64,000 nt of DNA from an uncultured Anaerolinea sp. (GTDB taxonomy: Bacteria > Chloroflexota > Anaerolineae > Anaerolineales > UBA4823): NCBI GenBank assembly GCA_964503625.1, contig CAZDAU010000004.1, positions 39,964 to 103,963 of the forward strand, given 5' to 3'. Below the pieces are notes generated by a model that worked only from the letters and a program-made list of their open reading frames with translations, ran no database searches and was not told where the DNA came from. Position numbers and translations under genes: made by a program. Shown here one piece after another: positions 12,716-63,514 of the stretch. Within the stretch, counting starts at the first letter, position 1, and every line of letters begins with the position of its first letter.

Positions 12716-13375
12716 TCAGGCGATCCCGTTGGGGGTAACCCAGCCCGCCCGAGCGGCGTAACGCAGCAGATCAACACTGCTGCGCACACCAACTTTGGTC
12801 ATCAGGCTGCTCCGATGGACTGAAACCGTTTTGGGGCTGATGCCCAGAAGATGGGCAATTTCTTTATTACTCTTGCCTTCAATCAAGTAATGGAGGACCT
12901 GCATCTCACGCTGGGTTAAACTCACTTTGGGGTCCGGTTCTTTGGCCTGCGGCTGGGTCAGGTTTTCAATCACCTGACGGGTAATACTGGCTTCCAAATA
13001 GGCGCCATGCTCAAAAACCTGATGAATAGCCGTCACCACTTCCCGGCCGCCTGAACGTTTTAGCACATACCCCGACGCCCCAGCGCGCAGCATTGGCTCA
13101 ACGTACTCGTGGTCATCATGCTGCGTCAGGATCAACACGCGCACCTGTGGGAAACGAGCTTTGATTTGCCGGGTCGCCTCTAATCCATCCATCTCCGGCA
13201 TGGAGACATCCATCAGCACCAGGTCGGGCAATAAAGCCTGGACTCGTTCAATTGCTTCGCGGCCATTGGCGGCCTCGCCCACCACATGGATATCCTCCTG
13301 CCGCTCGAGCAGCGAGCGGATACCATCCCGCAAAATTGCGTGGTCATCCACCACCAAAACCCGAATATCAGCCAT
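12716..13375 (-). CDS. NarL/LuxR-family response regulator
   Basis: REC domain (VVDDH, LMDVSMP) plus LuxR HTH (LTQREMQVL...SNKEIA). Confidence 0.93.
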   Translation of the reverse strand: MADIRVLVVDDHAILRDGIRSLLERQEDIHVVGEAANGREAIERVQALLPDLVLMDVSMPEMDGLEATRQIKARFPQVRVLILTQHDDHEYVEPMLRAGASGYVLKRSGGREVVTAIHQVFEHGAYLEASITRQVIENLTQPQAKEPDPKVSLTQREMQVLHYLIEGKSNKEIAHLLGISPKTVSVHRSSLMTKVGVRSSVDLLRYAARAGWVTPNGIA

Positions 13376-28340: not shown

Positions 28341-29009
28341 TTATTCCTCTTTGCGGTAATCGATATGGGCAATGCCAGCCCGCAGGGCATATAAAACCGC
28401 CTGGGTGCGGTTAGAAAGCCCCAGCTTGGCCAGGATGTTGGTGACGTGCGTGCGAACCGTCCGCTCGCTCAGCACCAGGACATCGGCAATCTCCTGGTTG
28501 GTCAAACCCAGGGCCATCTGCTGCAAGATCTCCACCTCCCGATCAGTCAACGCCCCGGCGGTGCTCGTCGCCCCTTCCTCGCCCTGGATTTCTTCCACCA
28601 GCTTGCGGGCGATCTCTGGCCCCAGGACTGGCTTGTTGCGGTAGGTATCCTGGATCGCCTGGAGCAAATCTTGCGAAGAGGTGTCCTTGATTAAATACCC
28701 AATTGCGCCGGCGCGAATGGCAGAGATCACCATGTGATCCTCAGCAAAACTGGTCAGCACCAGAATACGCGCCTGCGGATAGACTTTCTTTATTTCCAGG
28801 GTAGCCTGTACGCCATCCATGCGCGGCATGACCAGGTCCAGCAGAATGACATCCGGCTGCAGGTCTTTGGCCATGTGCACCGCTTCAAGGCCGTCCCCGG
28901 CAACCCCAATCACTTTCATCCCAGGCTCGGCCGAGATCAATGCCTTTAACCCGTCCCGCACCACGGTATGGTCGTCCACAATTAAGATACAAATCGGTCT
29001 CAGCGTCAT
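28341..29009 (-). CDS. NarL/LiaR-family response regulator
   Basis: IVDDH, LLDLVMP; LTDREVEIL...TNQEIA...RTHVTNIL. Confidence 0.93.
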   Translation of the reverse strand: MTLRPICILIVDDHTVVRDGLKALISAEPGMKVIGVAGDGLEAVHMAKDLQPDVILLDLVMPRMDGVQATLEIKKVYPQARILVLTSFAEDHMVISAIRAGAIGYLIKDTSSQDLLQAIQDTYRNKPVLGPEIARKLVEEIQGEEGATSTAGALTDREVEILQQMALGLTNQEIADVLVLSERTVRTHVTNILAKLGLSNRTQAVLYALRAGIAHIDYRKEE

Positions 29010-31698: not shown

Positions 31699-32262
31699 TC
31701 AAGCGGCTGGGGCAGGCTCGGCGGTCTCAGCAACCGGCTCGAGGTTGCCACGGCCATTGCTTTTTTCGCCAGCCGGTCCATCCAATTTTTGCCCGGTCTT
31801 CCTGGCTGCATCGCTGTTCTTTGCCGCCTGTTGTTGAGCCTGGCGGGCGCGGCGATACGCCGGGCTGTAAACAACGATTGCCTCGACAAAGACCTGGCGC
31901 ATTCTCGGATCCTGATCCAGGCTGCCATCAATCAGTTGCGCCAGGTTAAAATCCAGGCTGTCGGCAAATTCTTCCAAGGAGCGCCGAAAGGCCCAGGCTT
32001 CAGATTCCGAGAGGCTGGAAAGCCAGGTTTTGAAATCCTGGGGAAACAGGGCTGCGCCCTGGCCAAGTGCCCAGGCGCGGAAAGCTTCCGTTTCAGCCCG
32101 GCGGTTGAAAAGCCCACGCCAGCGCTCCCCCAGCCACCCAGTCCAGCGTTTGGTGGAAGCAACGGCTCTGCCTGTTGCACCATCCAGACGCTCGCCAAAA
32201 CGGCTAGACGCCAGCAGATAGCCCAGCAGGGCAAATAAAACCAACAGACTAAGCAGGTACAT
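31699..32262 (-). CDS. Hypothetical protein with N-terminal TM helix
   Basis: GGAG 6 nt before ATG; hydrophobic N-terminus ending GYLLASSRF. Confidence 0.7.
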   Translation of the reverse strand: MYLLSLLVLFALLGYLLASSRFGERLDGATGRAVASTKRWTGWLGERWRGLFNRRAETEAFRAWALGQGAALFPQDFKTWLSSLSESEAWAFRRSLEEFADSLDFNLAQLIDGSLDQDPRMRQVFVEAIVVYSPAYRRARQAQQQAAKNSDAARKTGQKLDGPAGEKSNGRGNLEPVAETAEPAPAA

Positions 32263-32274
32263 TCCAGGCTCCGA

Positions 32275-32349
32275 TCAGGATTTGCGGCTTTTGCCCAGCA
32301 AATATCCAACCACAAGTGCAATCAGCACCAAAATGACCAGTTCAAACAT
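32275..32349 (-). CDS. 24-aa single-TM micro-protein (not in ORF track)
   Basis: MFELVILVLIALVVGYLLGKSRKS; GGAGGT 5 nt before ATG; TGTTATAAT at 32405-32397. Confidence 0.7.
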   Translation of the reverse strand: MFELVILVLIALVVGYLLGKSRKS

Positions 32350-32411
32350 ACAACACCTCCAGAGATCAAGATAGCCTATGGATTGACAACATTTGCATTA
32401 TAACACAGCCG

Positions 32412-35255
32412 TCAGGACAAGTTTTTTGCCCGAGCGTTTGCATCGCTTTCAGCCAGCAGGCCGCCATCCAGGGTGAACTTACGCCATTCCGCACTGGCCC
32501 ACAACTCCTGGCGGACCGCCTGTTCAGCCGCCAGCAGGCTGGCATAGCGAGAACCCGGCTGTTTTGCCAGCACTTCCGGCATGCCATCCTCAACGATCCT
32601 GCCGTTTTCGATCACCAGGACACGGGGAAAAGCCAGCGTCTCGCCGACATCGTGGGTGATACAGAGCAGGGTGACGCCATCCCAATGCCGGCGGGCCTGC
32701 TCCAGAAGATTGCGCCGCTTTTCACGGTCCAGGCCGCGGAAAGGCTCATCCAGGATTACCAGGCGGGCCCCAACGCGGAGCATGGCTCTTCCCAGGCGCA
32801 CGCGCTGGCCCTCGCCACCGGAAACCAGGCCGCCTCCTTCGCCCAGGGGGGTCTTCAACCCGTCAGGCAGCCGATCCAGCACATCGTACAGGTCCGCCGA
32901 TTGGATCACTTCGCTCAACGGCCGGGCTTCGCTTTGCTCCATGCCATAGCGTAAATTATCGTACAAGGAGCGGTTCCAGAGCTGCACTGCCGGGTCCACC
33001 CAGGTGGTCTGGCGGCGCAAAGACTGCAGGCTGTTTCCATCCAGGGGCTGGCCATCCACTTGGATGCTACCCTGCGATGGCCGGTGCCAGCCCAAGAGCA
33101 AGCCAACCAGGCTGGATTTGCCTGCGCCTGACGGACCGACGATGGCCAGATGCTCGCCTGGCTGGATGTTCAGATTGATCCCCTCCAGGATAACGTGCCC
33201 GCCCGCTTGCAAGGTCACTTGCTGGATATCGATGCTCACCGGGGCAGAGACGGCTGGCTGAAGCATATCTTTTTGCTTCTCTGGGCTTTGAGACTCTATC
33301 GGCTGCGCCGCCCAGGCTTCTTCCTCATCCGGCGCGGTCAGTGGCTCCAGCAAGCGCAGGACCAAGTTGCGCTGCATGGGATACTGCTGAATCAAATCTG
33401 CCAGCGACTGGCCCAGAGCTGGTAGGCTGAGAGTCCAGTAGAAGAGCAGCAGGATCTCGTTGACATCACCGCCTTTCAAGAGGTAATTGACAATTATCAA
33501 AATGGCAAAGGCAGAGTACATCAAGGCGCCCAGAGCCTGTAAAATTGAGGCCAGGTTGTAGGATTCTCGCCCTGTGCGCACCCATTCATAGAGCTGGGTC
33601 TCGTGCTGACGGCGCATGGCCCGCTCAGCGCCATGGGTGCGCACAGGCACCAGTCCAAGCAGGGCGTCCAGGTAAAAGCGGCTCAAAGCCCCCGTGTGCG
33701 TGCGCAGGCGCAGGTCGCGCTCTTCCAGCAGCGGGCGGCTGGCAAAGGACAGGCCTACGAAGAAGGCCGTGCCCAAGATCGCCAATGGCGCGCTGATCGG
33801 ATCCAGCCAGATCACCCCAATCATGGTCAGGATGAGCTGGAAACCCGTCCGCAACAGGCCCACCCCCAGGTTGGGCAACGAGCGCAGGGCGCGCAGGTCA
33901 TGAGCGCGCTGGGTCATGTCGGAAGTCAGGCGGCTGCGGAAGTAGCGATCACCCAGGCGCGGGATTTTCTCCAGGAAGGCGATCCGCAGGCGGGCCTCCA
34001 GCCGCCGGCCCATGCGCAAAACCGTGGCGCTGATCGGAAATTCCAGCAGCAGAAGCGCCAGGACAAAAGCCAGCAAAGACAGGGAAGCCAGGATCCGCTG
34101 CGAGACCAGGGTCAGGTTCTGGCCAATGCGGATCATCCCCTGGAAAAGCAACGCTTCAATCAACACGCCCAGGGTTGCCAGGAACAAGGAAAGGACCAAC
34201 AAAGCAGGCGTGAGCAGGCCATCCTGGCGCAGGGCTTTCCAGACTTCTCTTTCCGGCCGCTGGACCGGCTCCTTGAGCGCTGCTTCCAGATCGGGGGGCA
34301 GCAAGACAGCCTGCGATATGCCGGCATCTTCTTGCGGGCCAGCCATTGCCGCGGCAGGTTTGCGTCCCAAAATGCGCACAAGCACTGCGCCACGCAAAAG
34401 CAGGTGCTGCAGCGGCTCTGTGCCGCTGGCCTGGGCTTCATTCTCAATAACGGGCAAGACCGACCAATAAGCCGCCGGGATCACCAGGCTCTCTGGGGCC
34501 TGATCTTGCAGCACCGATCCCTGGCGGCTTTCAACTTCGGGGAGAGGGCCAACCAGGTTGAGGCGATAGAAACGCTCCAGCACCCGACCCGCCTCGCTGC
34601 CAGCGAGCAGGCCGCGCGCCCGCACCAGGGAGGCGGTCATGCGCGTGGCTGCGTCCAGGGTGGCCAGGGCGCGCCAGCCAGGATCTTGCAGCGCGTCTTC
34701 AATCAACCGAGAGGCTTCCTGGTCGGCGATTTTTAAATCGGCCATCCGCCGGCGCAATGGCGCCAGCAAGCCTTCCGAACCAGCCCAAGCGCGCCAATCC
34801 TGGACCGGCACCGGAAACGAATGAATGTATAACTCTTGCTGGAAACGCTTCCAGCTTGGCCAGCGCCGTCCGGTAGCCGGATCCATCACCTGCAGCCTGT
34901 TCCCCACCCGGTTCCAGACCACCAGGAAGTGGGTCAATCCACTGGGCCGCTGAACCACCACAATGGCCGGCAGAGCCTGGGCTTCATCGAGCACCAGATG
35001 GTCCGCAGGGAGCATCACCTGTTCCGCCTGCAGGCCAAGCTGGATGGCAATATCTTCAATTGTGTTGATCGAAGTGCCGTCCACATCGGTCTGGCAGGCT
35101 TCGCGCAGGCGCCCGTAGCTCACCGGGATGTTGAAACCCTCCAGCAGGGATTTAAGCGCCGCCGGCCCGCAATCCATCGCTGAGGTCTGTACTACCTCAG
35201 GGGCAAAGAAACGTTGGCCCGGAACTGGCACTTCAAGACGCATGATGTGGGTCAA
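32412..35255 (-). CDS. Peptidase C39-containing ABC exporter (PCAT)
   Basis: QTSAMDCG, THFLVV, VMDP catalytic motifs; TMD; GPSGAGKS, VSGGE, ILDEP, ITHD. Confidence 0.92.
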   Translation of the reverse strand: MTHIMRLEVPVPGQRFFAPEVVQTSAMDCGPAALKSLLEGFNIPVSYGRLREACQTDVDGTSINTIEDIAIQLGLQAEQVMLPADHLVLDEAQALPAIVVVQRPSGLTHFLVVWNRVGNRLQVMDPATGRRWPSWKRFQQELYIHSFPVPVQDWRAWAGSEGLLAPLRRRMADLKIADQEASRLIEDALQDPGWRALATLDAATRMTASLVRARGLLAGSEAGRVLERFYRLNLVGPLPEVESRQGSVLQDQAPESLVIPAAYWSVLPVIENEAQASGTEPLQHLLLRGAVLVRILGRKPAAAMAGPQEDAGISQAVLLPPDLEAALKEPVQRPEREVWKALRQDGLLTPALLVLSLFLATLGVLIEALLFQGMIRIGQNLTLVSQRILASLSLLAFVLALLLLEFPISATVLRMGRRLEARLRIAFLEKIPRLGDRYFRSRLTSDMTQRAHDLRALRSLPNLGVGLLRTGFQLILTMIGVIWLDPISAPLAILGTAFFVGLSFASRPLLEERDLRLRTHTGALSRFYLDALLGLVPVRTHGAERAMRRQHETQLYEWVRTGRESYNLASILQALGALMYSAFAILIIVNYLLKGGDVNEILLLFYWTLSLPALGQSLADLIQQYPMQRNLVLRLLEPLTAPDEEEAWAAQPIESQSPEKQKDMLQPAVSAPVSIDIQQVTLQAGGHVILEGINLNIQPGEHLAIVGPSGAGKSSLVGLLLGWHRPSQGSIQVDGQPLDGNSLQSLRRQTTWVDPAVQLWNRSLYDNLRYGMEQSEARPLSEVIQSADLYDVLDRLPDGLKTPLGEGGGLVSGGEGQRVRLGRAMLRVGARLVILDEPFRGLDREKRRNLLEQARRHWDGVTLLCITHDVGETLAFPRVLVIENGRIVEDGMPEVLAKQPGSRYASLLAAEQAVRQELWASAEWRKFTLDGGLLAESDANARAKNLS

Positions 35256-35746
35256 TCCTGGGGGTTCTGCGGACTGACAGGCAGCTGGCTGCGGTTGAGG
35301 AATTTACCCGAGGTGCGCAAAACCAGCTCTGCAGGCGTGACATATTCCACTTCCACATCCACCTGGCCGGAGATCTCGCCCTGCTGCACATCAACTGGCA
35401 GCCCGCCAGAAAGCACCATGATTTCAACTTGTTCCCCCTCCCGTGGCAAATCCCAGACCACAGCCGAAAGAGTCAGCGCGGGTTGGTCGGGTCCCTGGCT
35501 CAAGCGCAGGATGGCGGGCATTCCAGGGCGCAGGCGTGAGCGGGACTCTTTTGGGAAAGTGACCAGAATTTTTCCGTCGGCGGCCATTTCCACCGAGTTG
35601 CTGATTTCGTACAGCGTCACTTTGGCCAGGAAAAACCACAGGATCAAGGCCAGCATGATGAAGATGGCAAAAACTAAGCCAATGCGCGTGGCACGGAAAC
35701 TATCCAGGCGCAAGGCGCGCATTGAGCGAGAGAATTGAATGGACAC
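35252..35746 (-). CDS. Truncated HlyD-like membrane-fusion/adaptor protein
   Basis: One N-terminal TM; RLRPGMPA and GQVDVEVEYVTPAELVLR beta-barrel-like segments; only 164 aa; stop overlaps PCAT start. Confidence 0.6.
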   Translation of the reverse strand: MSIQFSRSMRALRLDSFRATRIGLVFAIFIMLALILWFFLAKVTLYEISNSVEMAADGKILVTFPKESRSRLRPGMPAILRLSQGPDQPALTLSAVVWDLPREGEQVEIMVLSGGLPVDVQQGEISGQVDVEVEYVTPAELVLRTSGKFLNRSQLPVSPQNPQD

Positions 35747-35766
35747 CCTAATGCTCCATGAGCCAA

Positions 35767-35862
35767 CACTACAATTTGACCAATTATAAATGAGATTTCA
35801 AAGCCACAACCGAAAGATGCGACAAATGACATAGCTAAAACCCATTCCCCCCTGCGACAAAT
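35767..35862. promoter_or_regulatory. Divergent promoter region with TATAAT (minus, 35788-35783) and two TGCGACAAAT boxes
   Basis: TGCGACAAAT at 35818 and 35853; motif set shared with 43854-43959. Confidence 0.6.
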
Positions 35863-35996
35863 TCCTCTTGTCCCTTGTCTGTGCACATGATAAGATTTCA
35901 AGAGACTGAGTGCGGGTGCGGCTTTTGCGCCCACCTGTTTTTTGACTTTCCAACCTGGCAGGTGTTGCCTGCCATTTCCAGCCTGGGACCGCTTGC

Positions 35997-38201
35997 ATGG
36001 CAGCCAGAGAGCCCAATCTTGAACAGATCGCCTGGCCGGTGACCCGTCTGGGTGAGTTAACCGAAAATCTGGCGCGTAAAGCCGGGCTGACTGCCCGGCT
36101 GGTTCAGTTGCCTCAGCCGCCCGACGGTTTGGGCTTATCCAGCGACGCGGAACTCGGCGCCTGGCTGGACAACGCCGCCGGCTACCTGGGGCTGGAAGCG
36201 GAGCCGGTGAGCGCGCAATACGCCGATCTGGACCTTTTGCTCCAGGCCGGCGGCCCGGCGATCCTGAGGCTGCCAGGCACATCTCCGACAGGCGAATCGC
36301 TCGCCGGCCCTGCTTTTGTGGCGCTGGTGCGCGGCGCATCTAACAAGGTTTCCATCCTGTGCCCAGATCTGCGCGTGCGCCGCCTGAACCTGGCAACGCT
36401 GCAGGCCTTGCTCACCCGGCCTTATGACGCTTATCTGGGGGAGCAAATTGATCAACTGCTGGTCGATGCCGATGTGCCGGCGGAACGGCTGCAGCGTGCC
36501 CGGGCGGCTGTTTTGCGCGACCAGCTCGGCCCTCTGCGGATAGAGGCGGGCTGGCTGCTGCGCCTGCCGCCCTCGGCCAGCCTGCACAACCAGTTCCACC
36601 ATGCCGGGGTTTATCGACCGGTCAGGATCATGCTGTTCATGTATTTTATCCAGCAGTTGCTCTCGGTGGCTTCCTGGTTTGTCATCGGCCGGGGAATTTT
36701 CCAGGGCCATTTTGACCTGGGTTGGCTGGCAGCCTGGGCCATCCTGTTGCTCTCATCTATTCCGGTACAAATCGTTGTCAGCGATGCCCAAAGCGAGCTC
36801 TCGATGAGCGCAGGTGCGCTGTTCAAGCAACGGCTGATCCTGGGCACCCTGAAGCTGGATCCAGAAGAAATTCGCCACCAGGGCATGGGCCAGTTTCTGA
36901 ACCGGGTGATGGAATCTGAGGCGGTGGAGATGCTGGCTCTGAGCGGCGGTTTCACTGCCCTGCTCTCATTTATTGAGCTGGGCCTGGCCGTTGTGATCCT
37001 CTTCAATGGCTCTGGCGGAGCTATCAGCGCCGCCAGCCTGGTGATCTGGGTGTTGCTCACCCTGGTGATGCTGTGGCGCTACTATCAAAACAGCCGCGAA
37101 TGGACTGAGGCCTACCGGGAGATGACCAATCACCTGGTGGAGGAGATGGTTGGCCACCGCACCCGCCTGATCCAGCAAGACCCGCGCCGCTGGCATGAAG
37201 ATGAGGATCAGGAATTGGATCGCTATCTTAAGCTCTCCGAAAGCATGGATCAAACAGGTATCGGGATCAGCTCTTTCATCACCCGGGGCTGGATCCTGGT
37301 CGGCCTGGCGGGGATTGCCCTGGCCTATGTGGCGGGCAATCCCACTCCACAATCGCTGGCGATCAGCCTGGGTGGGATGCTGCTGGCCTCGCAAGGCTTG
37401 GGCAAGCTCACCGCCGGAACACAGAGCTTATCCAGCCTGGCCAACGCCTGGCAACAGGTTGGGCCGCTGTTCAAAGCCGCTGCCCGCCCGCGCCAGTTAC
37501 CTGCCCTGGGCTTCGTCCCGCCGGCTCGCGGCCGGATGCCAGACTCATCGGCTGCAGGGCAGGTCCAGACGGCACCTGCTAACGGACAGCAAGCGTTGAT
37601 TCAGGCCAGGGATGTGAGCTTTCGCTACCGGCCGCAAGGCCGGTCGATCTTGCAGGATTGCACCTTACAGATTTACCCTGGAGATCGACTCTTGTTGGAA
37701 GGACCTTCGGGCGGCGGAAAATCCACCCTTGCGGCTGTGCTCACCGGCTTGCGAGCGCCCGAATCCGGCTCGCTTTTGCTCTGGGGCTTCGACCGCCAAT
37801 TGCTTGGCGTGGAGGAATGGCGCAAACGAGTGGTCATGGCGCCCCAATTCCAGGAAAACTACGTGTTTTCTGAGACGCTGGCGTTTAACTTGCTGATGGG
37901 GCGAGGTTGGCCACCTAAACCCGAGGACCTTGAGGAAGCCGAGAGCATTTGCCAGGAACTGGGCCTGGGCGAGGTGCTCCAGCGTATGCCCTCCGGATTC
38001 CAGCAGATGGTCGGCGAGAGCGGCTGGCAGCTTTCGCATGGCGAGCGCAGCCGGCTGTTCATTGCCCGCACCTTGCTGCAGAAAGCCGACCTGATCGTAT
38101 TGGACGAGAGCTTCGGCGCGTTGGACCCCGAGAACCTGGAGCGCGCTTTGCAGTGTGTGCTGCGACGTGCGCCAACTTTGCTGGTCATCGCACACCCATA
38201 G
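35997..38201 (+). CDS. ABC exporter with inactive C39-like domain (probable heterodimer partner)
   Basis: LGLEAEPV...PAI aligns with the C39 domain but the Cys/His/Asp motifs are absent; GPSGGGKST, LSHGE, VLDES; ends at IAHP. Confidence 0.85.
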   Translation: MAAREPNLEQIAWPVTRLGELTENLARKAGLTARLVQLPQPPDGLGLSSDAELGAWLDNAAGYLGLEAEPVSAQYADLDLLLQAGGPAILRLPGTSPTGESLAGPAFVALVRGASNKVSILCPDLRVRRLNLATLQALLTRPYDAYLGEQIDQLLVDADVPAERLQRARAAVLRDQLGPLRIEAGWLLRLPPSASLHNQFHHAGVYRPVRIMLFMYFIQQLLSVASWFVIGRGIFQGHFDLGWLAAWAILLLSSIPVQIVVSDAQSELSMSAGALFKQRLILGTLKLDPEEIRHQGMGQFLNRVMESEAVEMLALSGGFTALLSFIELGLAVVILFNGSGGAISAASLVIWVLLTLVMLWRYYQNSREWTEAYREMTNHLVEEMVGHRTRLIQQDPRRWHEDEDQELDRYLKLSESMDQTGIGISSFITRGWILVGLAGIALAYVAGNPTPQSLAISLGGMLLASQGLGKLTAGTQSLSSLANAWQQVGPLFKAAARPRQLPALGFVPPARGRMPDSSAAGQVQTAPANGQQALIQARDVSFRYRPQGRSILQDCTLQIYPGDRLLLEGPSGGGKSTLAAVLTGLRAPESGSLLLWGFDRQLLGVEEWRKRVVMAPQFQENYVFSETLAFNLLMGRGWPPKPEDLEEAESICQELGLGEVLQRMPSGFQQMVGESGWQLSHGERSRLFIARTLLQKADLIVLDESFGALDPENLERALQCVLRRAPTLLVIAHP

Positions 38202-38229
38202 ACGCGCTTACTCAGCTTGAATTGACCAC

Positions 38230-38238
38230 TGATATAAT
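38230..38238 (+). promoter_or_regulatory. Extended -10 promoter element
   Basis: TGATATAAT about 30 nt upstream of ATG 38268; AAAGGA RBS between them. Confidence 0.55.
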
Positions 38239-38267
38239 ACACAAGATTGGTAAAGGAAACTTACACG

Positions 38268-38450
38268 ATGAAAATTCGCACCGGATTGAAAGCAGGCCAG
38301 GGGTTAGGAGACACCGTTGCCGACCTGGCTCACCTGACCGGCATGGACCAGTTGGCCAGGGTATATGAACAAACCACCGGAAAAAGCTGCGGCTGCGATC
38401 AGCGCCGACAGACGCTCAACCAGCTATTTCCATTCAGACAGAGCGCTTGA
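38268..38450 (+). CDS. 60-aa peptide, candidate PCAT substrate
   Basis: MKIRTGLKAG-QGLGDTVADLAHLTGMDQLARVYEQTTGKSCGCDQRRQTLNQLFPFRQSA; own RBS and extended -10. Confidence 0.75.
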   Translation: MKIRTGLKAGQGLGDTVADLAHLTGMDQLARVYEQTTGKSCGCDQRRQTLNQLFPFRQSA

Positions 38451-38463
38451 CTGAAAACCAGGC

Positions 38464-39483
38464 ATGCCCTTTAGAAGGCTGATTTTCCTTATCTTTGTGG
38501 TTGCCCTGCTGGCCGGGTGTCAGTCTGGGTCGCAACGCAATTGCCCGGATCAGTGTATCAGTGTCAATCTGAATAGCGCCAATTTGCGCGACCAGGATTT
38601 CAGCAACGCCCAGATGATGAATGCAAATTTGACCAAGGCCAACCTGGTTGAAGCCGACCTGAGCAACGCCAACCTGACTGGCGCCACACTCTCGCAAGCA
38701 GACATGGAAAGCGCAAACCTGACCGGGGCGCGCCTGGTTGGGAGCGACCTTTCGCTGGCTAACCTGCGCAATGCCTACCTGGACCAGGCTGATCTGAGCG
38801 GCGCTGATTTGAGCGGGGTCTCGATGATCCGCGTTGACCTGACCAGGACCTTGATGAACGGCGTCCGGCTGGGCGGCGCAGAAATGATTGGCTGCAACCT
38901 GGGCGGTGTGAACCTGAACGGCGTCGAGATGTATGAAGCCAACCTGAGCGGCGCCCTGCTGAATGACAGCAGTCTGAACGGGAGTGTGCTCAGCCTGTCC
39001 AATTTTAACGGCGCCGACCTGCGCCGGGCGCGACTCTCTGGCTCGTGGATAAACCTCGGCCAACTGGTGGGCGCAAACCTGCAAAGCGCCGACCTCACCG
39101 GCAGTACCTTCTTTGGCACCAATCTGACTGGCGCTGATCTTTCCAACGCCAAACTCAACGGCGCTTTTCTGGCCGGGACAGACCTGAGTGGTGCAGACCT
39201 GCGCGGAGCGGACCTGACCGGAGCAATCCTGGAACTGCCGTATCCCCCAAATGCTCCGGCAGGCTTCTCTTATGAAAACCTGACCGGCAGCGAATTTTTA
39301 CAGGCGCTTAACCAGACCGAAATGAGCCGCATCCTGGCCGACCGACGAGTGGCTGCCCTGACCGAGGTGCGCCTGAAGCCATACCTGCATAACGCTATCC
39401 TGCAAGGCGTAATCTACGATGAGAACACGGCCTGGCCCCTGGGCTTTGATATCCCCTCTTCGGCTATCTACCAGGGAAAGTGA
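38464..39483 (+). CDS. Pentapeptide-repeat lipoprotein
   Basis: LLAGC lipobox; many A(D/N)LXX repeats; CPDQC N-cap; YDENTAWPLGF C-cap. Confidence 0.9.
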   Translation: MPFRRLIFLIFVVALLAGCQSGSQRNCPDQCISVNLNSANLRDQDFSNAQMMNANLTKANLVEADLSNANLTGATLSQADMESANLTGARLVGSDLSLANLRNAYLDQADLSGADLSGVSMIRVDLTRTLMNGVRLGGAEMIGCNLGGVNLNGVEMYEANLSGALLNDSSLNGSVLSLSNFNGADLRRARLSGSWINLGQLVGANLQSADLTGSTFFGTNLTGADLSNAKLNGAFLAGTDLSGADLRGADLTGAILELPYPPNAPAGFSYENLTGSEFLQALNQTEMSRILADRRVAALTEVRLKPYLHNAILQGVIYDENTAWPLGFDIPSSAIYQGK

Positions 39484-41315
39484 CTTTGGACATGGTTGAT
39501 AAATCACCTGCTCAGAAAAAGAAATTTGTCTGGCGTGAATGGCTTGATGAAGCCGCGGTGCTGCTGGTGGTCCTGGCAGTCATTGGCAGCATTTATCTGT
39601 TTCGCAACCTGAGCTGCCCGCCGCGCTGCACCAATGCCAACCTGACTGGCAGGGATTTCCGTGACAAACCGCTGGACGGCGCTGACTTCACCAATGCCAT
39701 CCTGAATGGCGCGGATTTCACCGGCGCATCCCTGCGCGGTGCCAAACTTAACGGGGCCGACCTGAGCGGCTCGGTCCTGGTCTCCTCAAACCTGGCTGAG
39801 GCCGATTTTACCGACGCCATCCTGTTGGGCGCTCAACTGAACGGCGCCAACCTGACCGGGGCAACCCTGCAGAACACCAACCTGAGCAGCGCCGACCTCT
39901 CCAGCGCCATTCTCAAAGATGTCGACCTGACCCAAGATGTTCAGCTCACCGCCATCCGGTTGAACAAGGCCAACCTGATCGGGGCTAAGCTGAATGGGGC
40001 CAGGCTGAGCGGGGCGCTGATCACGGATGCCAATTTAAACGGGGCCGATCTTTCCGGCGCTGAACTGAGCGGGGTGAACCTGGAAGGTTCCGAAATGTAC
40101 GGCGCCAACCTGACCAAAGCAAACTTGCTCGGTGCCACCCTGGACCGAGCAAACCTGGTGGGGGCATCCTTGCCTGGAGCCAACCTGGCCGGCGCCAGCT
40201 TTTTCAACGCTGACCTCTCCGGATCTGATCTGACCAATGCTGACCTGACCGGGATTGTAAGCACCTCCGGGTATTTCGATGGCTCGATCATGACCGGCGC
40301 AAAGCTCAACCGGGCCCGGTTTTATGGCTCCGGGTTGGCCGGGGTGGTGCTGGAAAACGCCGACCTGACGGACGCCCGCTTTGATATTTACGAGCAAAAC
40401 GGCCAAATCACGCGCACTAATCTGGATGGTTCCCTGTTAAACCGGTCCGATCTCTCCGGCAGTTACCTGGCCGGCGCAACCCTTGCCGGGGCAGATTTGA
40501 CCCAGGCAGACCTGAGCCGCAGCGACTCGGCACCGGTCACGATTGTCGACAACCGCCAGATCGGTGGGATTACCCAAACCCTGAAAGCCGTGCTCTACGG
40601 CGCTAACCTTTCTGGAGCCGATTTCCAGGCTGCCAAGCTGGCAAACGCTGATTTGCGTGGCCTGAACCTTTCCAGGGCTAACTTCCGCCATGCTGATTTA
40701 CGCGGCGCTGACCTGAGCGCCGTGAACATGTCTGGAGCCGACCTGCGAGGCGCAAACATGGCAGGCGCTGACCTGGCTAACACCGACATGCTTGGCGCCA
40801 GGCTTGCCGGGGCCAACCTTTCTGGCACCGACCTCTCGGAAGTCAACCTGGATGGCGCTGCCCTGTGGAGCAGCACGCCGGTGACATTCACCGCCGACCT
40901 GACCTACGCAGAGCTGTTTCGTTTCCTGGCGCAAAGCGATTGCTTTAATGGGGATTTTCTGGTGGCGAATAACGGCACAGTAGCCAACGTGCCGGTGCGC
41001 TTTGATGAAGATGCAGGCAGCAACTTTTACTACAGCGAGATCTGGCGCAACGCCCGCGCCTATGTCTGCGCGGCCGACCTGAGCGATACCCGAATGTGGG
41101 GAAAACGTCTCTTGCCAACCTCGCTGGCTGGCGTGAACCTCACTGGCGCCGATCTGCGCTTCACCAATCTTCAGAATGTAAAATTTCAGGAAGAAATCAA
41201 GCTGGAAGACAACCTGAGCTATCTTTTAAAGGCGAACCTGGGCAAAATCGTTTACAACAGCTTCACGTCCTGGCCGAGCGATTTCATCCCCCCAGCCTCG
41301 GCCTCTACAGAGTAG
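39480..41315 (+). CDS. TM-anchored pentapeptide-repeat protein
   Basis: N-terminal TM; CPPRC; long A(D/N)LXX tracts; YNSFTSWPSDF C-cap. Confidence 0.9.
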   Translation: MTLDMVDKSPAQKKKFVWREWLDEAAVLLVVLAVIGSIYLFRNLSCPPRCTNANLTGRDFRDKPLDGADFTNAILNGADFTGASLRGAKLNGADLSGSVLVSSNLAEADFTDAILLGAQLNGANLTGATLQNTNLSSADLSSAILKDVDLTQDVQLTAIRLNKANLIGAKLNGARLSGALITDANLNGADLSGAELSGVNLEGSEMYGANLTKANLLGATLDRANLVGASLPGANLAGASFFNADLSGSDLTNADLTGIVSTSGYFDGSIMTGAKLNRARFYGSGLAGVVLENADLTDARFDIYEQNGQITRTNLDGSLLNRSDLSGSYLAGATLAGADLTQADLSRSDSAPVTIVDNRQIGGITQTLKAVLYGANLSGADFQAAKLANADLRGLNLSRANFRHADLRGADLSAVNMSGADLRGANMAGADLANTDMLGARLAGANLSGTDLSEVNLDGAALWSSTPVTFTADLTYAELFRFLAQSDCFNGDFLVANNGTVANVPVRFDEDAGSNFYYSEIWRNARAYVCAADLSDTRMWGKRLLPTSLAGVNLTGADLRFTNLQNVKFQEEIKLEDNLSYLLKANLGKIVYNSFTSWPSDFIPPASASTE

Positions 41316-41342
41316 GCTCCCGGCCGGTCAACGGGAGGTATC

Positions 41343-42101
41343 ATGACTCAAACGATCACTGTGGCAAATCAGAAGGGCGGGGTGGGTAAGACCACAACCG
41401 CGGTCAACCTGGCGCATGGCCTGGTCTTGCAGGGTAAACGCGTCTTGCTCGTCGATCTGGACCCGCAGGGCCAGTGCGCCACGATCCTGGGATTAAAGCC
41501 CGAGCCGGGCACATTCAACCTGTTAGTGGCTGAATCCCCGTTCAAGCAAGTGACGCGCCTGACCGATCGGAAAGGTCTGCTGGTCATATTGGGAGACCGG
41601 AAGACCTCAACTGCGCAGACCGTGCTCAACGTCCAGCGCACGCCCATTTCGTTCATCCACAGCAAGCTGGTCGTCCCGGCCCAAAAGGATGGACTGGATT
41701 ACATTGTCATCGATACTTCTCCCAGTGTGGGGGAATTGCAAGAACAGGCGCTGTGGGCTGCGGATGGCGTACTGATCCCTTGCGCCGTCGATTACCTGGC
41801 GACCGATGGGGTGTACAACATTGCCCAAACCCTCAAGCGCATCCAGGAGGAGTACAAATGGCAGGGCCGTGTTCTGGGCATCTTGCCCACATTCTATGAT
41901 ACGGTTACCCGAGAGAGTAAAGCCACGTTACAGGACCTGCAAAAGCGCTTTTCCGGCGCCATGCTCAGCCCCATTCACCGTGCCACGATCCTGCGCGAAT
42001 GCGCCGTAGAGGGCAAAACAATTTTCGAGATGGCCCCCGAAAGCCGAGCTGCAAAACAATACCTGGGGCTGGTGGAACATGTCTTGAATTGGGGAGGTTA
42101 G
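41343..42101 (+). CDS. ParA/Soj-family ATPase (no parB nearby)
   Basis: NQKGGVGKTTT, VDLDPQG, IDTSP; GGGAGGT RBS. Confidence 0.9.
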   Translation: MTQTITVANQKGGVGKTTTAVNLAHGLVLQGKRVLLVDLDPQGQCATILGLKPEPGTFNLLVAESPFKQVTRLTDRKGLLVILGDRKTSTAQTVLNVQRTPISFIHSKLVVPAQKDGLDYIVIDTSPSVGELQEQALWAADGVLIPCAVDYLATDGVYNIAQTLKRIQEEYKWQGRVLGILPTFYDTVTRESKATLQDLQKRFSGAMLSPIHRATILRECAVEGKTIFEMAPESRAAKQYLGLVEHVLNWGG

Positions 42102-42130
42102 AAAGCTGATGCTATGAATATTAATGCAAT

Positions 42131-42170
42131 AAGACCAGACTATCTTAACCCAGACAGCCTGGTCTTTTAA
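42131..42170. terminator. Hairpin between convergent genes
   Basis: AAGACCAG (42131-42138) / CTGGTCTT (42159-42166) followed by TTAATTT. Confidence 0.45.
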
Positions 42171-42190
42171 TTTACCTGGTTGAGCAAAAC

Positions 42191-42475
42191 TTATTCGCTG
42201 GTTTCGGACTCTGCCTCTGAACTCTTGCGGCGGCTGGGCTGCTTCTCGGCGGGTTGCGGGCTTGCATCCACCGCTGAGCCTTCGATCACCTCGCTGGCTG
42301 GTTGCTCTTTCTTCTGACGAAAAGTCCTGCGCCACCATCCCTCGGCCTTGTCCGCCGCACCGCGGGATACATCAGCCACCTTCTCTGTTGCGCTGTCGAT
42401 CGGCTTGCTGAATCTGCTGCGCGCAACAAAATAACCAATCACCCCCGCAATTAGCAGAAGAACAAGTAATTGCAT
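42191..42475 (-). CDS. 94-aa protein with N-terminal TM helix
   Basis: AAGGAG RBS; TM ending GYFVARSRF; TGTTATAAT at 42538-42530. Confidence 0.75.
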   Translation of the reverse strand: MQLLVLLLIAGVIGYFVARSRFSKPIDSATEKVADVSRGAADKAEGWWRRTFRQKKEQPASEVIEGSAVDASPQPAEKQPSRRKSSEAESETSE

Positions 42476-42560
42476 GTTTCTCTCCTTCCAAAGCTAAACT
42501 TTGATATATTCAGGATGCTAGACGGCAGAATTATAACATACTCCTCTTTGCCAGCGCCGC

Positions 42561-43721
42561 TCAAGGGGTTGGCGAGGGGGCTATGGTGGGCGTGGGGGTG
42601 GGTGTACTGATCACAGGAGGAATGGTCAATGTGTTGGTGATAGTGCCTGTTATGGCCGTCGAGGGCGCACCCACTGTCCCCAGATCGCCGGTCAGGTCGG
42701 GCACCGACAGAATGAAGGGCGCATCGTTGGGCAGCAGCATCACCCGCAGGTTGGGCGAGAGCTTCTCAATATAGCGATACAGCAACAGCGATGGGTCACG
42801 TTGCAATGCCTGGTTGATCAACCGCAAGGCGTCGGAGTCTGCTTTGGCCTGCAGCACCGTCGCCGTAGCTTTGGCCTGGGCTTCGCGCTCGATTGCAGCT
42901 GCCCGGCCTTCAGCCTCAATCTTTTGCCGGTCGCGCTCACCCTCAGCCAGCTTGCGTATTTGCTCAGCCTGGTATTCGCGCTGGATGCGTTCTTGCTCAG
43001 CGACCTGTTTCTGCTCGATGGCAGACGAGAACGCCTGCGAGAAGGCAATATTGCGCAGCAAAAAGCGGTCTAGGATGAAGCCCTTATCCCCAAGAGCGCC
43101 TCGCAGCAGATCTTCCAGGTTAGCCTCCAGGTTCTTGCGTCGGGAGCTGTTAATCTCCTCGGCGGTGAACTGAGAGACCTCCGTGCGGATCACCCCGCGC
43201 ATCACTGGGCGGATGAAGTCTTCCACGTATCGGTTCTGCAAGTCCGTGTGCACCCGGATGACCTCGTTGGGGTCAATCCGGTAGATGATTGAGCTGTCCA
43301 GATAAACCACCTGGCCATCCGAGGTTCGGGCAGCAATCGCGTCATTCCCCGATTTCGCCCCTTCCTGGGCATCGGAGGACATGGTATAGGTCTGCCAGTA
43401 GATCGGATAGCGCACCACCCGCTCCGCCAGCGGCACAATGGCCCGCAAACCCGAGCGCAGTGGCTGTTCGCGATAACCACTGGGACTGGTGATCGAGATC
43501 ACCACCCCGGCTTCTTGCGGCTCAATGAACACCAGGCTGGCGCTGAGCATTGACAGGCCGACAGCCACCAACAGACCTACCAAAACTCGGAAGGAGAGAA
43601 AAGACCGCAAGGCCTGGCGCATCCCACCTGCCCGGTACGCATGGAGCAACACCGAAAACAGGAAGACCACAAACCAGACCCAGGCTAAGACAGCAATGAC
43701 AGCGAGCAGTTGATCCAACAT
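42561..43721 (-). CDS. SPFH/prohibitin-family membrane protein with Pro/Thr-rich tail
   Basis: Two N-terminal TMs; ARTSDGQVVYLD, LLRNIAF, AIEQKQVAEQ, coiled AE repeats. Confidence 0.88.
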   Translation of the reverse strand: MLDQLLAVIAVLAWVWFVVFLFSVLLHAYRAGGMRQALRSFLSFRVLVGLLVAVGLSMLSASLVFIEPQEAGVVISITSPSGYREQPLRSGLRAIVPLAERVVRYPIYWQTYTMSSDAQEGAKSGNDAIAARTSDGQVVYLDSSIIYRIDPNEVIRVHTDLQNRYVEDFIRPVMRGVIRTEVSQFTAEEINSSRRKNLEANLEDLLRGALGDKGFILDRFLLRNIAFSQAFSSAIEQKQVAEQERIQREYQAEQIRKLAEGERDRQKIEAEGRAAAIEREAQAKATATVLQAKADSDALRLINQALQRDPSLLLYRYIEKLSPNLRVMLLPNDAPFILSVPDLTGDLGTVGAPSTAITGTITNTLTIPPVISTPTPTPTIAPSPTP

Positions 43722-43804
43722 AGATCAATTTCCAATTCTTTTGAACGATTCGTCCGTATTTTTCCACATCAACTAGTGTTCAGTCAATGAGAAAATGATG
43801 GATT

Positions 43805-43860
43805 TGTAGTGACGGCTTTAGCCGTTACAGGCGCAAAAAACGACGAAAGTCGTCACTACA
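43805..43860 (-). promoter_or_regulatory. Structured 5' leader candidate (branched hairpin)
   Basis: 10-bp outer IR TGTAGTGACG/CGTCACTACA enclosing two 5-bp tetraloop hairpins. Confidence 0.45.
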
Positions 43861-43872
43861 GCCCATCGAAAT

Positions 43873-43959
43873 CAATTTGACTGACTACCAGTTATGTTGG
43901 TCTATTATAAATGAGTAAAACCGATTTCAACGCTGGATCGAATGAATTTGCGACAAATG
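43873..43959 (-). promoter_or_regulatory. Promoter sharing motifs with 35767-35828
   Basis: TATAAT (43909-43904), TTGAAA, ATTTG-cga-CAAAT palindrome. Confidence 0.6.
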
Positions 43960-44022
43960 TATTAAGCCGGAATGACCCGAACAGCCCTTTCTCACCCGGC
44001 CATCCCAGCCAATGCCAGGCTC

Positions 44023-45546
44023 TCAGCGTGAAAGTGGGATGCTGACCTCGCAGACTTGCTCATTAAACTCGCTGCCAGGACGCAAGACAAATGTCCATCC
44101 CTGGCCTGCCGGCGCCACATCGAAGGCCAACGCTGTACGCCATGTCTCCCCCGGCTGGATCAGATCCTGGTAGAGGTTCGAAGGCTGCTCAATGTAAAGG
44201 TAGCCGGTTGCGGCCGCATGCGGGGAATAGGTTACGATCTCACCATCCACCTCACCCTGCACAAAATAATCCTGATCCCAAATCTGGATCGGGAAGTTGC
44301 TCTGGTTTGCCAGCTCCAGGCGCAGGGTCAAAAAAGTGCCCGACGCATGGTGCTCAAACAGGTCTTTTTGGAACCGGGGCGAGTCAATCAAACGAGCGGT
44401 GAGGGCCTGGCCACAGGCGTGCGGAAAGGTGTATCCAGGACCAGGCGTTGGGCCAGCCTGGGTTGGCTCGGGGAGCGGCGTGACGGGGATGTAGGTGGCG
44501 GCTGGCGTTGGCAGGCTGGCCTGCGTAAACGCAAATTGACTGATCAGCGCATTGTAGATGTAATTTTGCCACAGGGCTACCATGTCATTGTGATGATATT
44601 CATGCGAGCGAAAAGTCTGCAAGATCATTCGCCCACCCAGACACGAAACCAGCAAACCACGATCCTGAGTCCAGGAGCGGTTGACATCGGCTAAAATGAG
44701 CGGATCCCCAGAGGGCGCACCGATGACCGGTTCAATTTGGAGCAGGTCGCCCACGTCCCCGCGCCAGAGCGGGGCAGCGTTGCGCAAGCCGGAGGCCAGA
44801 TCATTGGGCTGATTGAAAATCGGGTGGGCCGGGTCGGTCCAATAGAAGACCCTCATCTCCGGCTCATACCAGTCACTCTGCACAGCCACACCGCAGCGAG
44901 CCAGCAAGGGCCTCACCCGGCCATCTGGGGCGCTATCCAGGTCCCAGCTTTCGAGGATCACGGCTGCCCCGCGCCCCAGGTGATCATCGAGATATTCATA
45001 AAGCTCCCCGCCAAACTCGCGCTCTGCCTCCGCCGAAGCGATGATCAGATCCCACTTTTCCCCCGAAAGCAGTTGCGACTTGAACCAACCCTTGGCGCTA
45101 CCCACATCCAGGTAAAAATAACCAGCCTCATCCAGAGCCTCCTTGACCAGCCTTATCTGTCGTGAGGCCGACATGTCTTCAAAAAGCAAGATCCGGGCCG
45201 AATTCAGCAGGCGCTCTTCGGCCAGATTTGGCTCTGTCATGGTATGGGTAACGATGATCAGTGGAGTGGGGCTGGCCGCTTCAAGAGTGCCTGTCGCGTC
45301 TGGGGTGACCAACAGTTGTGCCTGAGGCGGCAATGTCTGTGAGCCAACTCCCAGGGCAATGGCAGAAACCGTCTGGGCAAGGCTGGTCTGTTGGGCATTG
45401 ACGGCTGAAGCAGTGGCCTGCAACCCATCCTGTGCAGCAAACAAGTTGCACGAGATCAGGAGCAGGACCAAACTGATAAGCCAGATAAGAAAAGCGGCGC
45501 GGTGCAATGAATAGCGATTCACGGCGAACCTGGGGCGATGTCCCAA
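44023..45546 (-). CDS. Lipoprotein of unknown function, C-terminal DUF4352-like Ig-fold segment
   Basis: LLLISCNLF lipobox; Thr/Pro-rich linkers; FLTLRLELAN...TALAFDV. Confidence 0.6.
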   Translation of the reverse strand: MGHRPRFAVNRYSLHRAAFLIWLISLVLLLISCNLFAAQDGLQATASAVNAQQTSLAQTVSAIALGVGSQTLPPQAQLLVTPDATGTLEAASPTPLIIVTHTMTEPNLAEERLLNSARILLFEDMSASRQIRLVKEALDEAGYFYLDVGSAKGWFKSQLLSGEKWDLIIASAEAEREFGGELYEYLDDHLGRGAAVILESWDLDSAPDGRVRPLLARCGVAVQSDWYEPEMRVFYWTDPAHPIFNQPNDLASGLRNAAPLWRGDVGDLLQIEPVIGAPSGDPLILADVNRSWTQDRGLLVSCLGGRMILQTFRSHEYHHNDMVALWQNYIYNALISQFAFTQASLPTPAATYIPVTPLPEPTQAGPTPGPGYTFPHACGQALTARLIDSPRFQKDLFEHHASGTFLTLRLELANQSNFPIQIWDQDYFVQGEVDGEIVTYSPHAAATGYLYIEQPSNLYQDLIQPGETWRTALAFDVAPAGQGWTFVLRPGSEFNEQVCEVSIPLSR

Positions 45547-63172: not shown

Positions 63173-63415
63173 TTATTGCTTGCGCCGGACGTAGGCAGAA
63201 AGCCGGTTAACGGAGTCGAAATTATCTGGGATGATTTCGGTATCTTTGACCTGGATGTTGAAGTTCTCTTCAACAAAGAGAACCAGCTCCATCACCCCCT
63301 GCGAATCGATAATCCCTTCTTCAAGGAAAGATGCATCATCGCTGTATTTAAATCCATCGCTGCTGAACAGCAGGTTTTTAGCGATGTAATCTTTGATTTG
63401 TGCTTCGATAGTCAT
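63173..63415 (-). CDS. Acyl carrier protein
   Basis: 80 aa acidic protein; GIIDSQGVMELV phosphopantetheine-Ser motif. Confidence 0.9.
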   Translation of the reverse strand: MTIEAQIKDYIAKNLLFSSDGFKYSDDASFLEEGIIDSQGVMELVLFVEENFNIQVKDTEIIPDNFDSVNRLSAYVRRKQ

Positions 63416-63514
63416 CTGTCAACCTCATGAATTTGAATCATAGAATAATGGCGATTAAACCTGGCAGCCCGTTGAGCCTGCACCAGGCGAATCACTCATC
63501 CAAAGGCGCTCATT

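Follow-up and report, generated by a model that had tools for sequence, protein, structure and literature searches.

In the peptide-pheromone loci of Firmicutes, several promoters have one operator in common, placed upstream of a good −10 and a poor −35 element. These circuits rely on a LytTR regulator, two 9-bp direct repeats, a polytopic peptide-sensing kinase, and a peptide with a double-glycine leader. The present analysis concerns two intergenic regions in a 64,000-nucleotide stretch of DNA from an uncultured Anaerolinea sp. (contig CAZDAU010000004.1, positions 39,964 to 103,963; hereafter the window), which have in common a 16-bp putative operator and a −10 box. One region precedes the gene for the single-transmembrane (single-TM) protein p156 and a C39-peptidase ATP-binding cassette (ABC) exporter, and the other an SPFH/Band-7 gene. 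As in ComCDE, BlpRH, and PlnABCD, small peptides, a C39 exporter with a putative single-TM accessory protein, and a kinase/regulator pair are encoded in one locus. The differences from the Firmicutes circuits are nevertheless substantial. The regulator is of the GerE/NarL type rather than LytTR, and the 7-2-7 repeat of the operator is inverted rather than direct; the LytTR regulator on direct repeats that marks Com, Blp, and Pln is thus absent here. The kinase is a cytoplasmic GAF protein instead of a polytopic sensor, with sensing of an extracellular peptide not evident; the small peptides begin with MKxRTxLKAG in place of a double-glycine leader; and the cluster adds SPFH, ParA-like, and pentapeptide-repeat genes.

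For the operator itself, the closest described counterparts are those of Escherichia coli NarL and NarP. NarL 7-2-7 sites are bound as a dimer by the NarL output domain and lie at about −40 to −49 at napF and yeaR (PMC4549865). The Anaerolinea sites likewise consist of inverted heptamers with a gap of exactly 2 bp and TA at both ends, are situated upstream of or overlapping the −35 position, and have a NarL-family regulator encoded beside their targets. The heptamer is TAnG(A/T)CA here as against TACYYMT in E. coli—a core of G(A/T)CA, not YYMT—leaving the leading TA (TAC in some sites) in common. NarX and NarQ are the sensors in E. coli, as opposed to a cytoplasmic multi-GAF HisKA_3 kinase here, and the targets there are respiratory, whereas here they are a peptide exporter, SPFH, and a ParA/pentapeptide module; binding by a dimer is putative in the present case.

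Boxes shared by the two regions

Region 1 (35723-35996) contains divergent promoters and region 2 (43722-44022) precedes SPFH and p94; both lie upstream of minus-strand genes, namely p156/C39 exporter (from 35722 downward) and SPFH (from 43721 downward). The first-pass annotation of this DNA had reported five identical strings in the two regions, and a direct check located each of them on the plus strand at exactly the positions given (Table 1). Counted over the whole window, the 9-, 11-, and 12-mers are confined to the two regions, CACTACA has a third copy, inverted, at 43805, and GATTTCAA occurs six times, which is chance level when taken alone. An additional copy of TGCGACAAAT is present in region 1 at 35853.

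Taken together, the five motifs are not a chance match. Collinear exact matches of at least 9 nt form a chain between regions 1 and 2 that sums to 32 nt, the highest of 462 pair-and-orientation comparisons among the window's 22 intergenic regions; the runner-up chains sum to 20 and 19 nt. Shuffled DNA, in which the motifs should be equally frequent if they had arisen by chance, did not match the set: none of 20,000 shuffles reached 32 nt (maximum 28), and the value observed for a cruder statistic, the 7-mer count, was reached in 2 of 2000. Gapped local alignment of the two regions, by contrast, yields a z of only 3.3 and needs six gaps, and MAFFT produced no alignment between them. Since the chain is significant but the alignment weak, the signal resides in the 12-mer and the 11-mer and not in a continuous alignment, and the regions therefore have discrete boxes in common rather than a duplicated segment. 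Words from region 1 are also found in the intergenic stretches 63277-63514 and 32263-32411; these are not collinear and were set aside as chance.

Conservation divides the five strings. Only TGCGACAAATG and ATTATAAATGAG appear to be functional signals; CACTACA, CAATTTGAC, and GATTTCAA, conserved in neither orthologue set, did not hold up as functional motifs. The sharing of these three is coincidence, produced in one case by the REPIN-like insertion described below.

Conservation and specificity of the 7-2-7 operator

As defined from the collected sites, the operator is 16 bp long and comprises two inverted heptamers 2 bp apart, TAnG(A/T)CA-WW-TG(A/T)CnnA. A position weight matrix (PWM) trained on other species only, with the window sites excluded, places the two window sites first and second in a scan of the window, and the third match reaches only 11.5 bits; the best score among 200 null sequences was 21.1 bits. 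The information content of the matrix peaks symmetrically, at positions 2, 6, 10, 11, and 13.

Orthologues were taken from loci of related species, designated here by L numbers. The SPFH operator is conserved upstream of the SPFH orthologues of L003-L016, L089, L093, L215, L219, and L221, and the p156 operator in L089, L091, L093, L215, L217, L219, L220, and L221; operator and −10 box are kept upstream of SPFH and p156 orthologues in more than 15 related Anaerolineae species. In L219, L220, and L221, which took no part in training, an operator of like orientation precedes the SPFH homologue, the p156 homologue, or both, and the dyad of L221 is a nearly perfect palindrome (TAAGTCA-AT-TGACGTA). 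Distant orthologues retain the operator as TAAGACATTTGACTGA, TAAGACATTTGTCTGA, GAAGACAAATGACGCA, and similar variants.

Among seven species whose SPFH proteins are 67%–85% identical, the only blocks kept in region 2 are TAA(T/G)ACATTTG(T/A)CGCA and CTCATTTATAAT, with diverging flanks. Region 1, compared in four species, has four kept blocks: CTATGTCATTTG(T/A)CGCATCTTT, T(C/T)T(C/A)ATTTATAATTGGT, GGACAAGnGGAATTTG(T/A)CGCAG, and GAAATCTTATCATGCGC. The last of these is the reverse complement of the extended −10 element TGATAAGAT of the divergent promoter; it is invariant in the four species and present also in L215 and L016. All region-1 orthologues conserve GGACAAGnGGAATTTGWCGCAG, in which GGACAA is the reverse complement of the divergent −35 element TTGTCC, separated from the extended −10 by a 17-nt spacer. 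The recurrence of the box at 35853, to which the first-pass annotation had drawn attention, is thus a conserved feature of region-1 orthologues and sits just 5′ of the −35 of the divergent ABC operon. The palindrome ATTTG-cga-CAAAT seen earlier in region 2, on the other hand, is not a conserved dyad: its right arm reads TCTT, ACTT, and TATT in L089, L005, and L006, respectively, and the true conserved symmetry is that of the 7-2-7 repeat (TAATACA-TT-TGTCGCA), whose axis lies 6 nt away.

In loci of 12–20 kb from eight other species, every site of at least 13 bits falls in an intergenic promoter region of the cluster, with the exception of one 14.7-bit match in L221. A metagenome scan for ATTTGWCGCA-N20-40-CATTTATAAT listed at least 120 matches; among those listed, six are true orthologues of region 1 or 2 and the remainder are chance AT-rich sequence.

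Promoter architecture and spacing

A sigma-70 scan found neither a −35 element nor a full promoter at the two perfect TATAAT boxes, which fits dependence on an activator. A good −10, a poor −35, and a phased operator are together the features of an activator-dependent sigma-70-type promoter, and all are found here, with start sites predicted. Measured from the operator centre to the first T of TATAAT, the distance is 37 bp at the p156 promoter (four species), 45–48 bp at the SPFH promoter (13 species), and 56–58 bp at six further promoters; these classes step by about 10 bp, implying that the same face of the helix is presented. The offset of one helical turn between the two regions, proposed in the first-pass annotation, is real: box and TATAAT are 34 nt apart in one region and 44 nt in the other, start to start, and the difference is kept in orthologues. 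The interval from −10 to ATG at the SPFH promoter varies among orthologues, as expected of a promoter element. In every species examined, counting by eye gave 35–36 nt between the distal heptamer and the proximal operator and 22 nt between that heptamer and the −10 block of the divergent promoter. If transcription starts 7 nt past the hexamer, as was assumed for these positions, the operator centres would lie at −49.5 (p156) and −59.5 (SPFH), and the distal heptamer at about −47 of the divergent promoter.

As a common −35 element, TTGAAATC was considered and rejected: its distance from TATAAT is 7 nt in the first region but 15 nt in the second, and region-1 orthologues do not conserve it.

Further signals lie in and around the same transcription units. 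The predicted 5′ leader of ABC734, the second ABC protein, contains between the predicted start at about 35903 and the ATG at 35997 a terminator-like hairpin (35914-35940, plus strand; GGGTGCGGCTTTTGCGCCC and then a run of T), which may be an attenuator; a second hairpin occurs in this leader at about 35950-35975. The gene for the 60-residue peptide p60 has an extended −10 of its own, TGATATAAT (38230-38238, plus strand), directly past the ABC734 stop codon, and may also be transcribed apart from the regulated promoter. Another extended −10, TGTTATAAT (32396-32404, minus strand), lies just past the stop codon of the C39 exporter and upstream of p187, which suggests that p187, and perhaps the kinase and regulator genes too, are under a separate, operator-free promoter.

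The candidate regulator

The only recognisable DNA-binding protein of the cluster is its NarL-type regulator. The kinase/regulator pair is present with the cluster in the window and in L089, L091, L093, L215 (where the kinase was seen at the contig end), L217, L219, and L220. In L217, the kinase/regulator operon is separate, having moved beside a thioredoxin-like gene, and bears two operators of its own, 35 nt apart, with a further site 3′ of the regulator gene. Compared with the cluster regulator of the window, the L217 regulator has 69% identity and a near-identical helix-turn-helix; compared with the second NarL-type regulator of the window (12716-13375), its identity is only 36%. The cluster of L214 has no kinase/regulator pair, and within 20.5 kb it contains no site of 13 bits or more, only decayed remnants at altered distances. 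The conserved elements are thus real, cluster-specific, and accompanied by the kinase/regulator pair; the protein that binds the operator is probably the cluster NarL-type regulator, the best candidate on circumstantial but consistent grounds.

It is rather likely, on this reading of the sequence, that both regions serve as promoters for a single, locally regulated cluster and that the cluster regulator activates them via the operator. The GAF kinase would phosphorylate the NarL/GerE-type regulator (28341-29009), a dimer of which would then bind 7-2-7 operators placed at fixed helical turns upstream of TATAAT boxes that lack a good −35. Binding would activate RNA polymerase at the p156/C39-exporter and SPFH promoters and, through the heptamer beside the −35 (35853-35873), could also activate the divergent promoter leading to ABC734, p60, the pentapeptide-repeat pair, and the ParA-like ATPase. 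The identity of the binding protein, activation rather than repression, and the positions of the starts are here deduced. The earlier suggestion that one factor co-regulates the exporter operon and SPFH is supported by the footprints of the TGCGACAAAT box and the −10 12-mer in both regions of many species.

A number of observations weigh against this reading. The negative case, L214, is one species, and its pair could lie elsewhere in the genome. No operator precedes the kinase/regulator genes themselves in the window's species, and the heptamers are not the E. coli NarL consensus TACYYMT, the likeness being geometric only. The implied centre of the p156 operator at −49.5 is not a classical activator position, and one promoter, that of p156 in L215, has its operator 30 bp from TATAAT, outside the 10-bp series. 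Among public RNA data the locus is represented in one 16-Mb metatranscriptome, by three short contigs within cluster genes and none over the promoters, which shows only weak transcription inside three cluster genes; no RNA runs covering SPFH were found. The metagenome pattern scan, with its at least 120 matches, gives no regulon size or genome-wide distribution.

Alternative explanations

Some of these points would suit a different factor, global or encoded elsewhere—the second NarL-type regulator at 12716-13375, for example—with the neighbouring pair unrelated to the operator. Kinase/regulator genes without an operator of their own, heptamers that depart from TACYYMT, and a genome-wide distribution beyond the reach of the metagenome matches listed all fit such a factor. 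It is nonetheless an unlikely binder. The only significant sites in the 64 kb are those of the two cluster promoters, and in the eight other species sites of at least 13 bits lie in cluster promoter regions except for the 14.7-bit match in L221. The site has decayed in L214, where the cluster is without the pair, whereas the relocated L217 operon carries its own pair of sites, and the second regulator is just 36% identical to the one that travels with the cluster. Shared ancestry touches a separate question, that of where the boxes came from. The SPFH upstream regions of L008, L009, L012, and L016 have the full divergent two-box layout seen in region 1 of the window, and the two regions may therefore have a common ancestor. 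That the boxes are nothing but remnants of a duplicated promoter segment, with no shared regulator, is however highly improbable: descent accounts for their origin and not for their maintenance, and neutral remnants are not expected to stay invariant across species with 50%–85% protein identity when the spacers have fully diverged. A recently duplicated promoter, the other possibility raised in the first-pass annotation, is also unlikely, given that no continuous similarity extends beyond the boxes and that the spacers between them, which differ in length by exactly 10 nt, resist alignment.

Two further alternatives take the boxes to be accidental or to be elements of RNA. TATAAT words are common in intergenic DNA, and coincidence between two AT-rich, promoter-like sequences draws on the chance-level frequency of the 7-mer and the 8-mer, on the modest z of the gapped alignment, and on the lack of conservation of CACTACA, CAATTTGAC, and GATTTCAA. 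For these three strings coincidence does hold; for the 11-mer and the 12-mer it is refuted by their conservation in the orthologues of both regions, and with no shuffle in 20,000 attaining the chain of matches of at least 9 nt, and the pair first of 462, it is scarcely credible as an account of the whole. Action in RNA, as a leader or small-RNA element instead of a DNA operator, has in its favour that the region 2 operator is about 60 nt past the stop codon of the same-strand upstream gene, where read-through RNA could include it. The boxes of region 1, however, lie between two divergent −10 elements and outside both predicted transcripts, and spacing is fixed to TATAAT and not to the start codon. 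No Rfam family matched at the gathering score (searching at E ≤1 gave noise only, namely mir-548 on the REPIN hairpin), there is no conserved small open reading frame (ORF), and an RNA role is accordingly very hard to credit.

Other candidates were rejected outright. The shared words do not encode a small ORF or peptide: the reading frame differs between region 1 (ATG-AGA-TTT-CAA) and region 2 (ATG-AGT...GAT-TTC-AAC), and the ORF of the former has 14 codons. Direct repeats of the attL/attR type bounding an 8-kb island were discounted, as synteny in many species extends over the entire 19-kb cluster and the boxes are conserved in place. A search for tRNA genes found none.

A REPIN-like insertion in the SPFH leader

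Repetitive extragenic palindromes (REPs) are defined by a GTAG tag followed by an imperfect palindrome of 20–40 bp, and have been described mostly in Proteobacteria although they are found in eight phyla (PMC3733652). About 100 nt of the SPFH leader in the window are an insertion, found in none of the orthologues from other species. Within it, two REP units, GTAGTGACGGCTTTAGCCGT and GTAGTGACGACTTTCGTCGT, each composed of GTAG and a short palindrome, are inverted with respect to each other and 12 nt apart. Arms of 22 nt with 86% complementarity give a long hairpin (fold z-scores of −4.3 as DNA and −5.9 as RNA leader). In the metagenome that contains this genome, word depth reaches about 2100 over the element as against about 9 on its flanks, and contigs break there, with many variant contigs. 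In its two inverted GTAG units, each with an imperfect palindrome, its long hairpin, and its high copy number in the metagenome, the element is like GTAG-tagged REPs and REPIN doublets (PMC3733652; PMC3337134); it differs in being single-copy in the 64-kb window and in that no RAYT transposase gene was seen.

The insertion explains part of the similarity first noticed between the two regions. CACTACA in region 2 is the reverse complement of the GTAG head of the REP unit and is situated inside the insertion that orthologues lack, while CAATTTGAC straddles its edge. The element is a bystander to the shared-operator finding, although its hairpin, within the predicted SPFH leader, may affect mRNA stability or translation.

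The gene cluster and its conservation

The genomes closest to the window are metagenome-assembled genomes (MAGs) of Anaerolinea and Chloroflexi, and identical contigs occur in freshwater metagenomes. Leftward from region 1 lie p156, the C39 exporter, p187, the kinase, and the regulator; the rightward operon comprises ABC734, p60, two pentapeptide-repeat proteins, and a ParA-like ATPase. The arrangement spans about 19 kb, and its synteny extends to several species. Coordinates are given in Table 1.

Table 1. Features of the two promoter regions and the surrounding cluster. Positions are those of the window unless a locus is named.
Feature	Position	Strand	Remarks
CACTACA	35767 / 43854	+	string match
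CAATTTGAC	35772 / 43873	+	string match
ATTATAAATGAG	35783 / 43904	+	string match; on the minus strand the −10 box CTCATTTATAAT
GATTTCAA	35794 / 43923	+	string match
TGCGACAAATG	35818 / 43949	+	string match; right half of the 16-bp inverted repeat
p156/C39-ABC-promoter proximal operator	35818..35833	-	TATGTCA-TT-TGTCGCA; 22.2 bits; contains TGCGACAAATG
SPFH-promoter operator	43949..43964	-	TAATACA-TT-TGTCGCA; 25.1 bits, best match in window
−10 box of p156 promoter, CTCATTTATAAT	35783..35794	-	TATAAT 35788 to 35783; predicted start ~35776
−10 box of SPFH promoter, CTCATTTATAAT	43904..43915	-	TATAAT 43909 to 43904; predicted start ~43897
Distal conserved block	35853..35873	+	heptamer TGCGACA 35853-35859, then −35 TTGTCC 35868-35873
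Extended −10 TGATAAGAT of divergent promoter	35888..35896	+	predicted start ~35903
REPIN-like doublet of GTAG-tagged REP units	43792..43875		units 43805-43826 and 43839-43860
NarL/GerE-type response regulator	28341..29009	-	Pfam Response_reg + GerE
Multi-GAF HisKA_3 kinase	29044-31557		partner of the NarL/GerE-type regulator
p187	31699-32262	-	follows C39 exporter
C39-peptidase ABC exporter	32412-35255	-	Pfam Peptidase_C39, ABC_membrane, ABC_tran
p156, single-TM protein	35252-35722	-	no Pfam/NCBIfam match; family restricted to this clade
ABC734, second ABC protein	35997-38201	+	734 aa
p60, 60-aa peptide	38268-38450	+	small-peptide family member
p94	42191-42475	-	follows SPFH
SPFH/Band-7 gene	42561..43721	-	Pfam Band_7 at 6e-35; promoter 2 target
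Small-peptide family members, L016	2236-2427, 2486-2779	-	
Small-peptide family member, L008	2432-2659	-	
Small-peptide family member, L217	9461-9819	-	

Both directions of transcription had been thought to lead to members of the same small-TM family. The family relationship stands, p94 and p187 being paralogues with a common N-terminal TM helix and the motif GY(F/L)(V/L)A(R/S)SRF; the opposite directions do not, as both genes are 3′ of minus-strand promoters. In distant relatives, the gene after SPFH is a longer, p187-like form. Upstream of SPFH, a 507-residue protein (44023-45546, minus strand) with an N-terminal TM or signal segment and no Pfam or NCBIfam match is conserved in closer relatives, its place being taken elsewhere by a penicillin-binding protein or peptide genes.

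The best or near-best NCBIfam similarity of ABC734 and the C39 exporter is to the paired NHLP-bacteriocin exporters NHLM_micro_ABC2 and ABC1, at scores far below the family cut-offs for both proteins. The N-terminal ~200 residues of ABC734 have no family match where ABC1 has its C39 domain.

Divergently from SPFH, the distant relatives L008 and L016 have genes for small peptides whose N terminus, MK(I/V)RTxLKAG, is also that of p60 in the window. Peptides of this family, about 60 residues long, have a common N terminus, MK(I/V)RTxLKAG(Q/G/S), and variable C-terminal parts. They match no Pfam or NCBIfam model, and the shared N terminus departs from the canonical double-glycine leader; the C39 exporter may take them as substrates. 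One member contains repeats of GGGYVNGVxYxDKSGVC, and the peptides are always found within this cluster, sometimes in two copies.

Significance for the Anaerolineae

The shared operator is a real but ordinary co-regulation motif, one more example of a well-known kind of regulation, found here in a peptide-export cluster that is uncharacterised. By analogy, the layout resembles a loop of peptide export, sensing, and auto-induction. A bolder proposal, put forward only tentatively and on balance doubtful, is that the cluster is a peptide-based circuit for cell-cell signalling or differentiation in filamentous Anaerolineae. Peptides with the MKxRTxLKAG leader would in that case be processed and exported by the twin ABC/C39 system, and the GAF kinase and NarL-type regulator would auto-induce the peptides, the exporter, and the SPFH scaffold, together with the ParA/pentapeptide module, through the operator.

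As a case of five shared motifs, the two regions provided two that are informative and three that are not, one of the latter derived from a mobile repeat. Anaerolineae are abundant, mostly uncultured filamentous bacteria, and we know of no cis-regulatory data for them. A 19-kb Anaerolineae cluster, conserved but of unassigned role, now has a concrete operator and a candidate for its regulator; the cluster unites SPFH, a ParA-like ATPase, pentapeptide-repeat proteins, two ABC/C39 exporters, small peptides, and a kinase/regulator pair. With the operator PWM, the regulon can be delimited in complete MAGs, and the promoter/regulator pair could be transferred to a heterologous host to find the signal to which the cluster responds.

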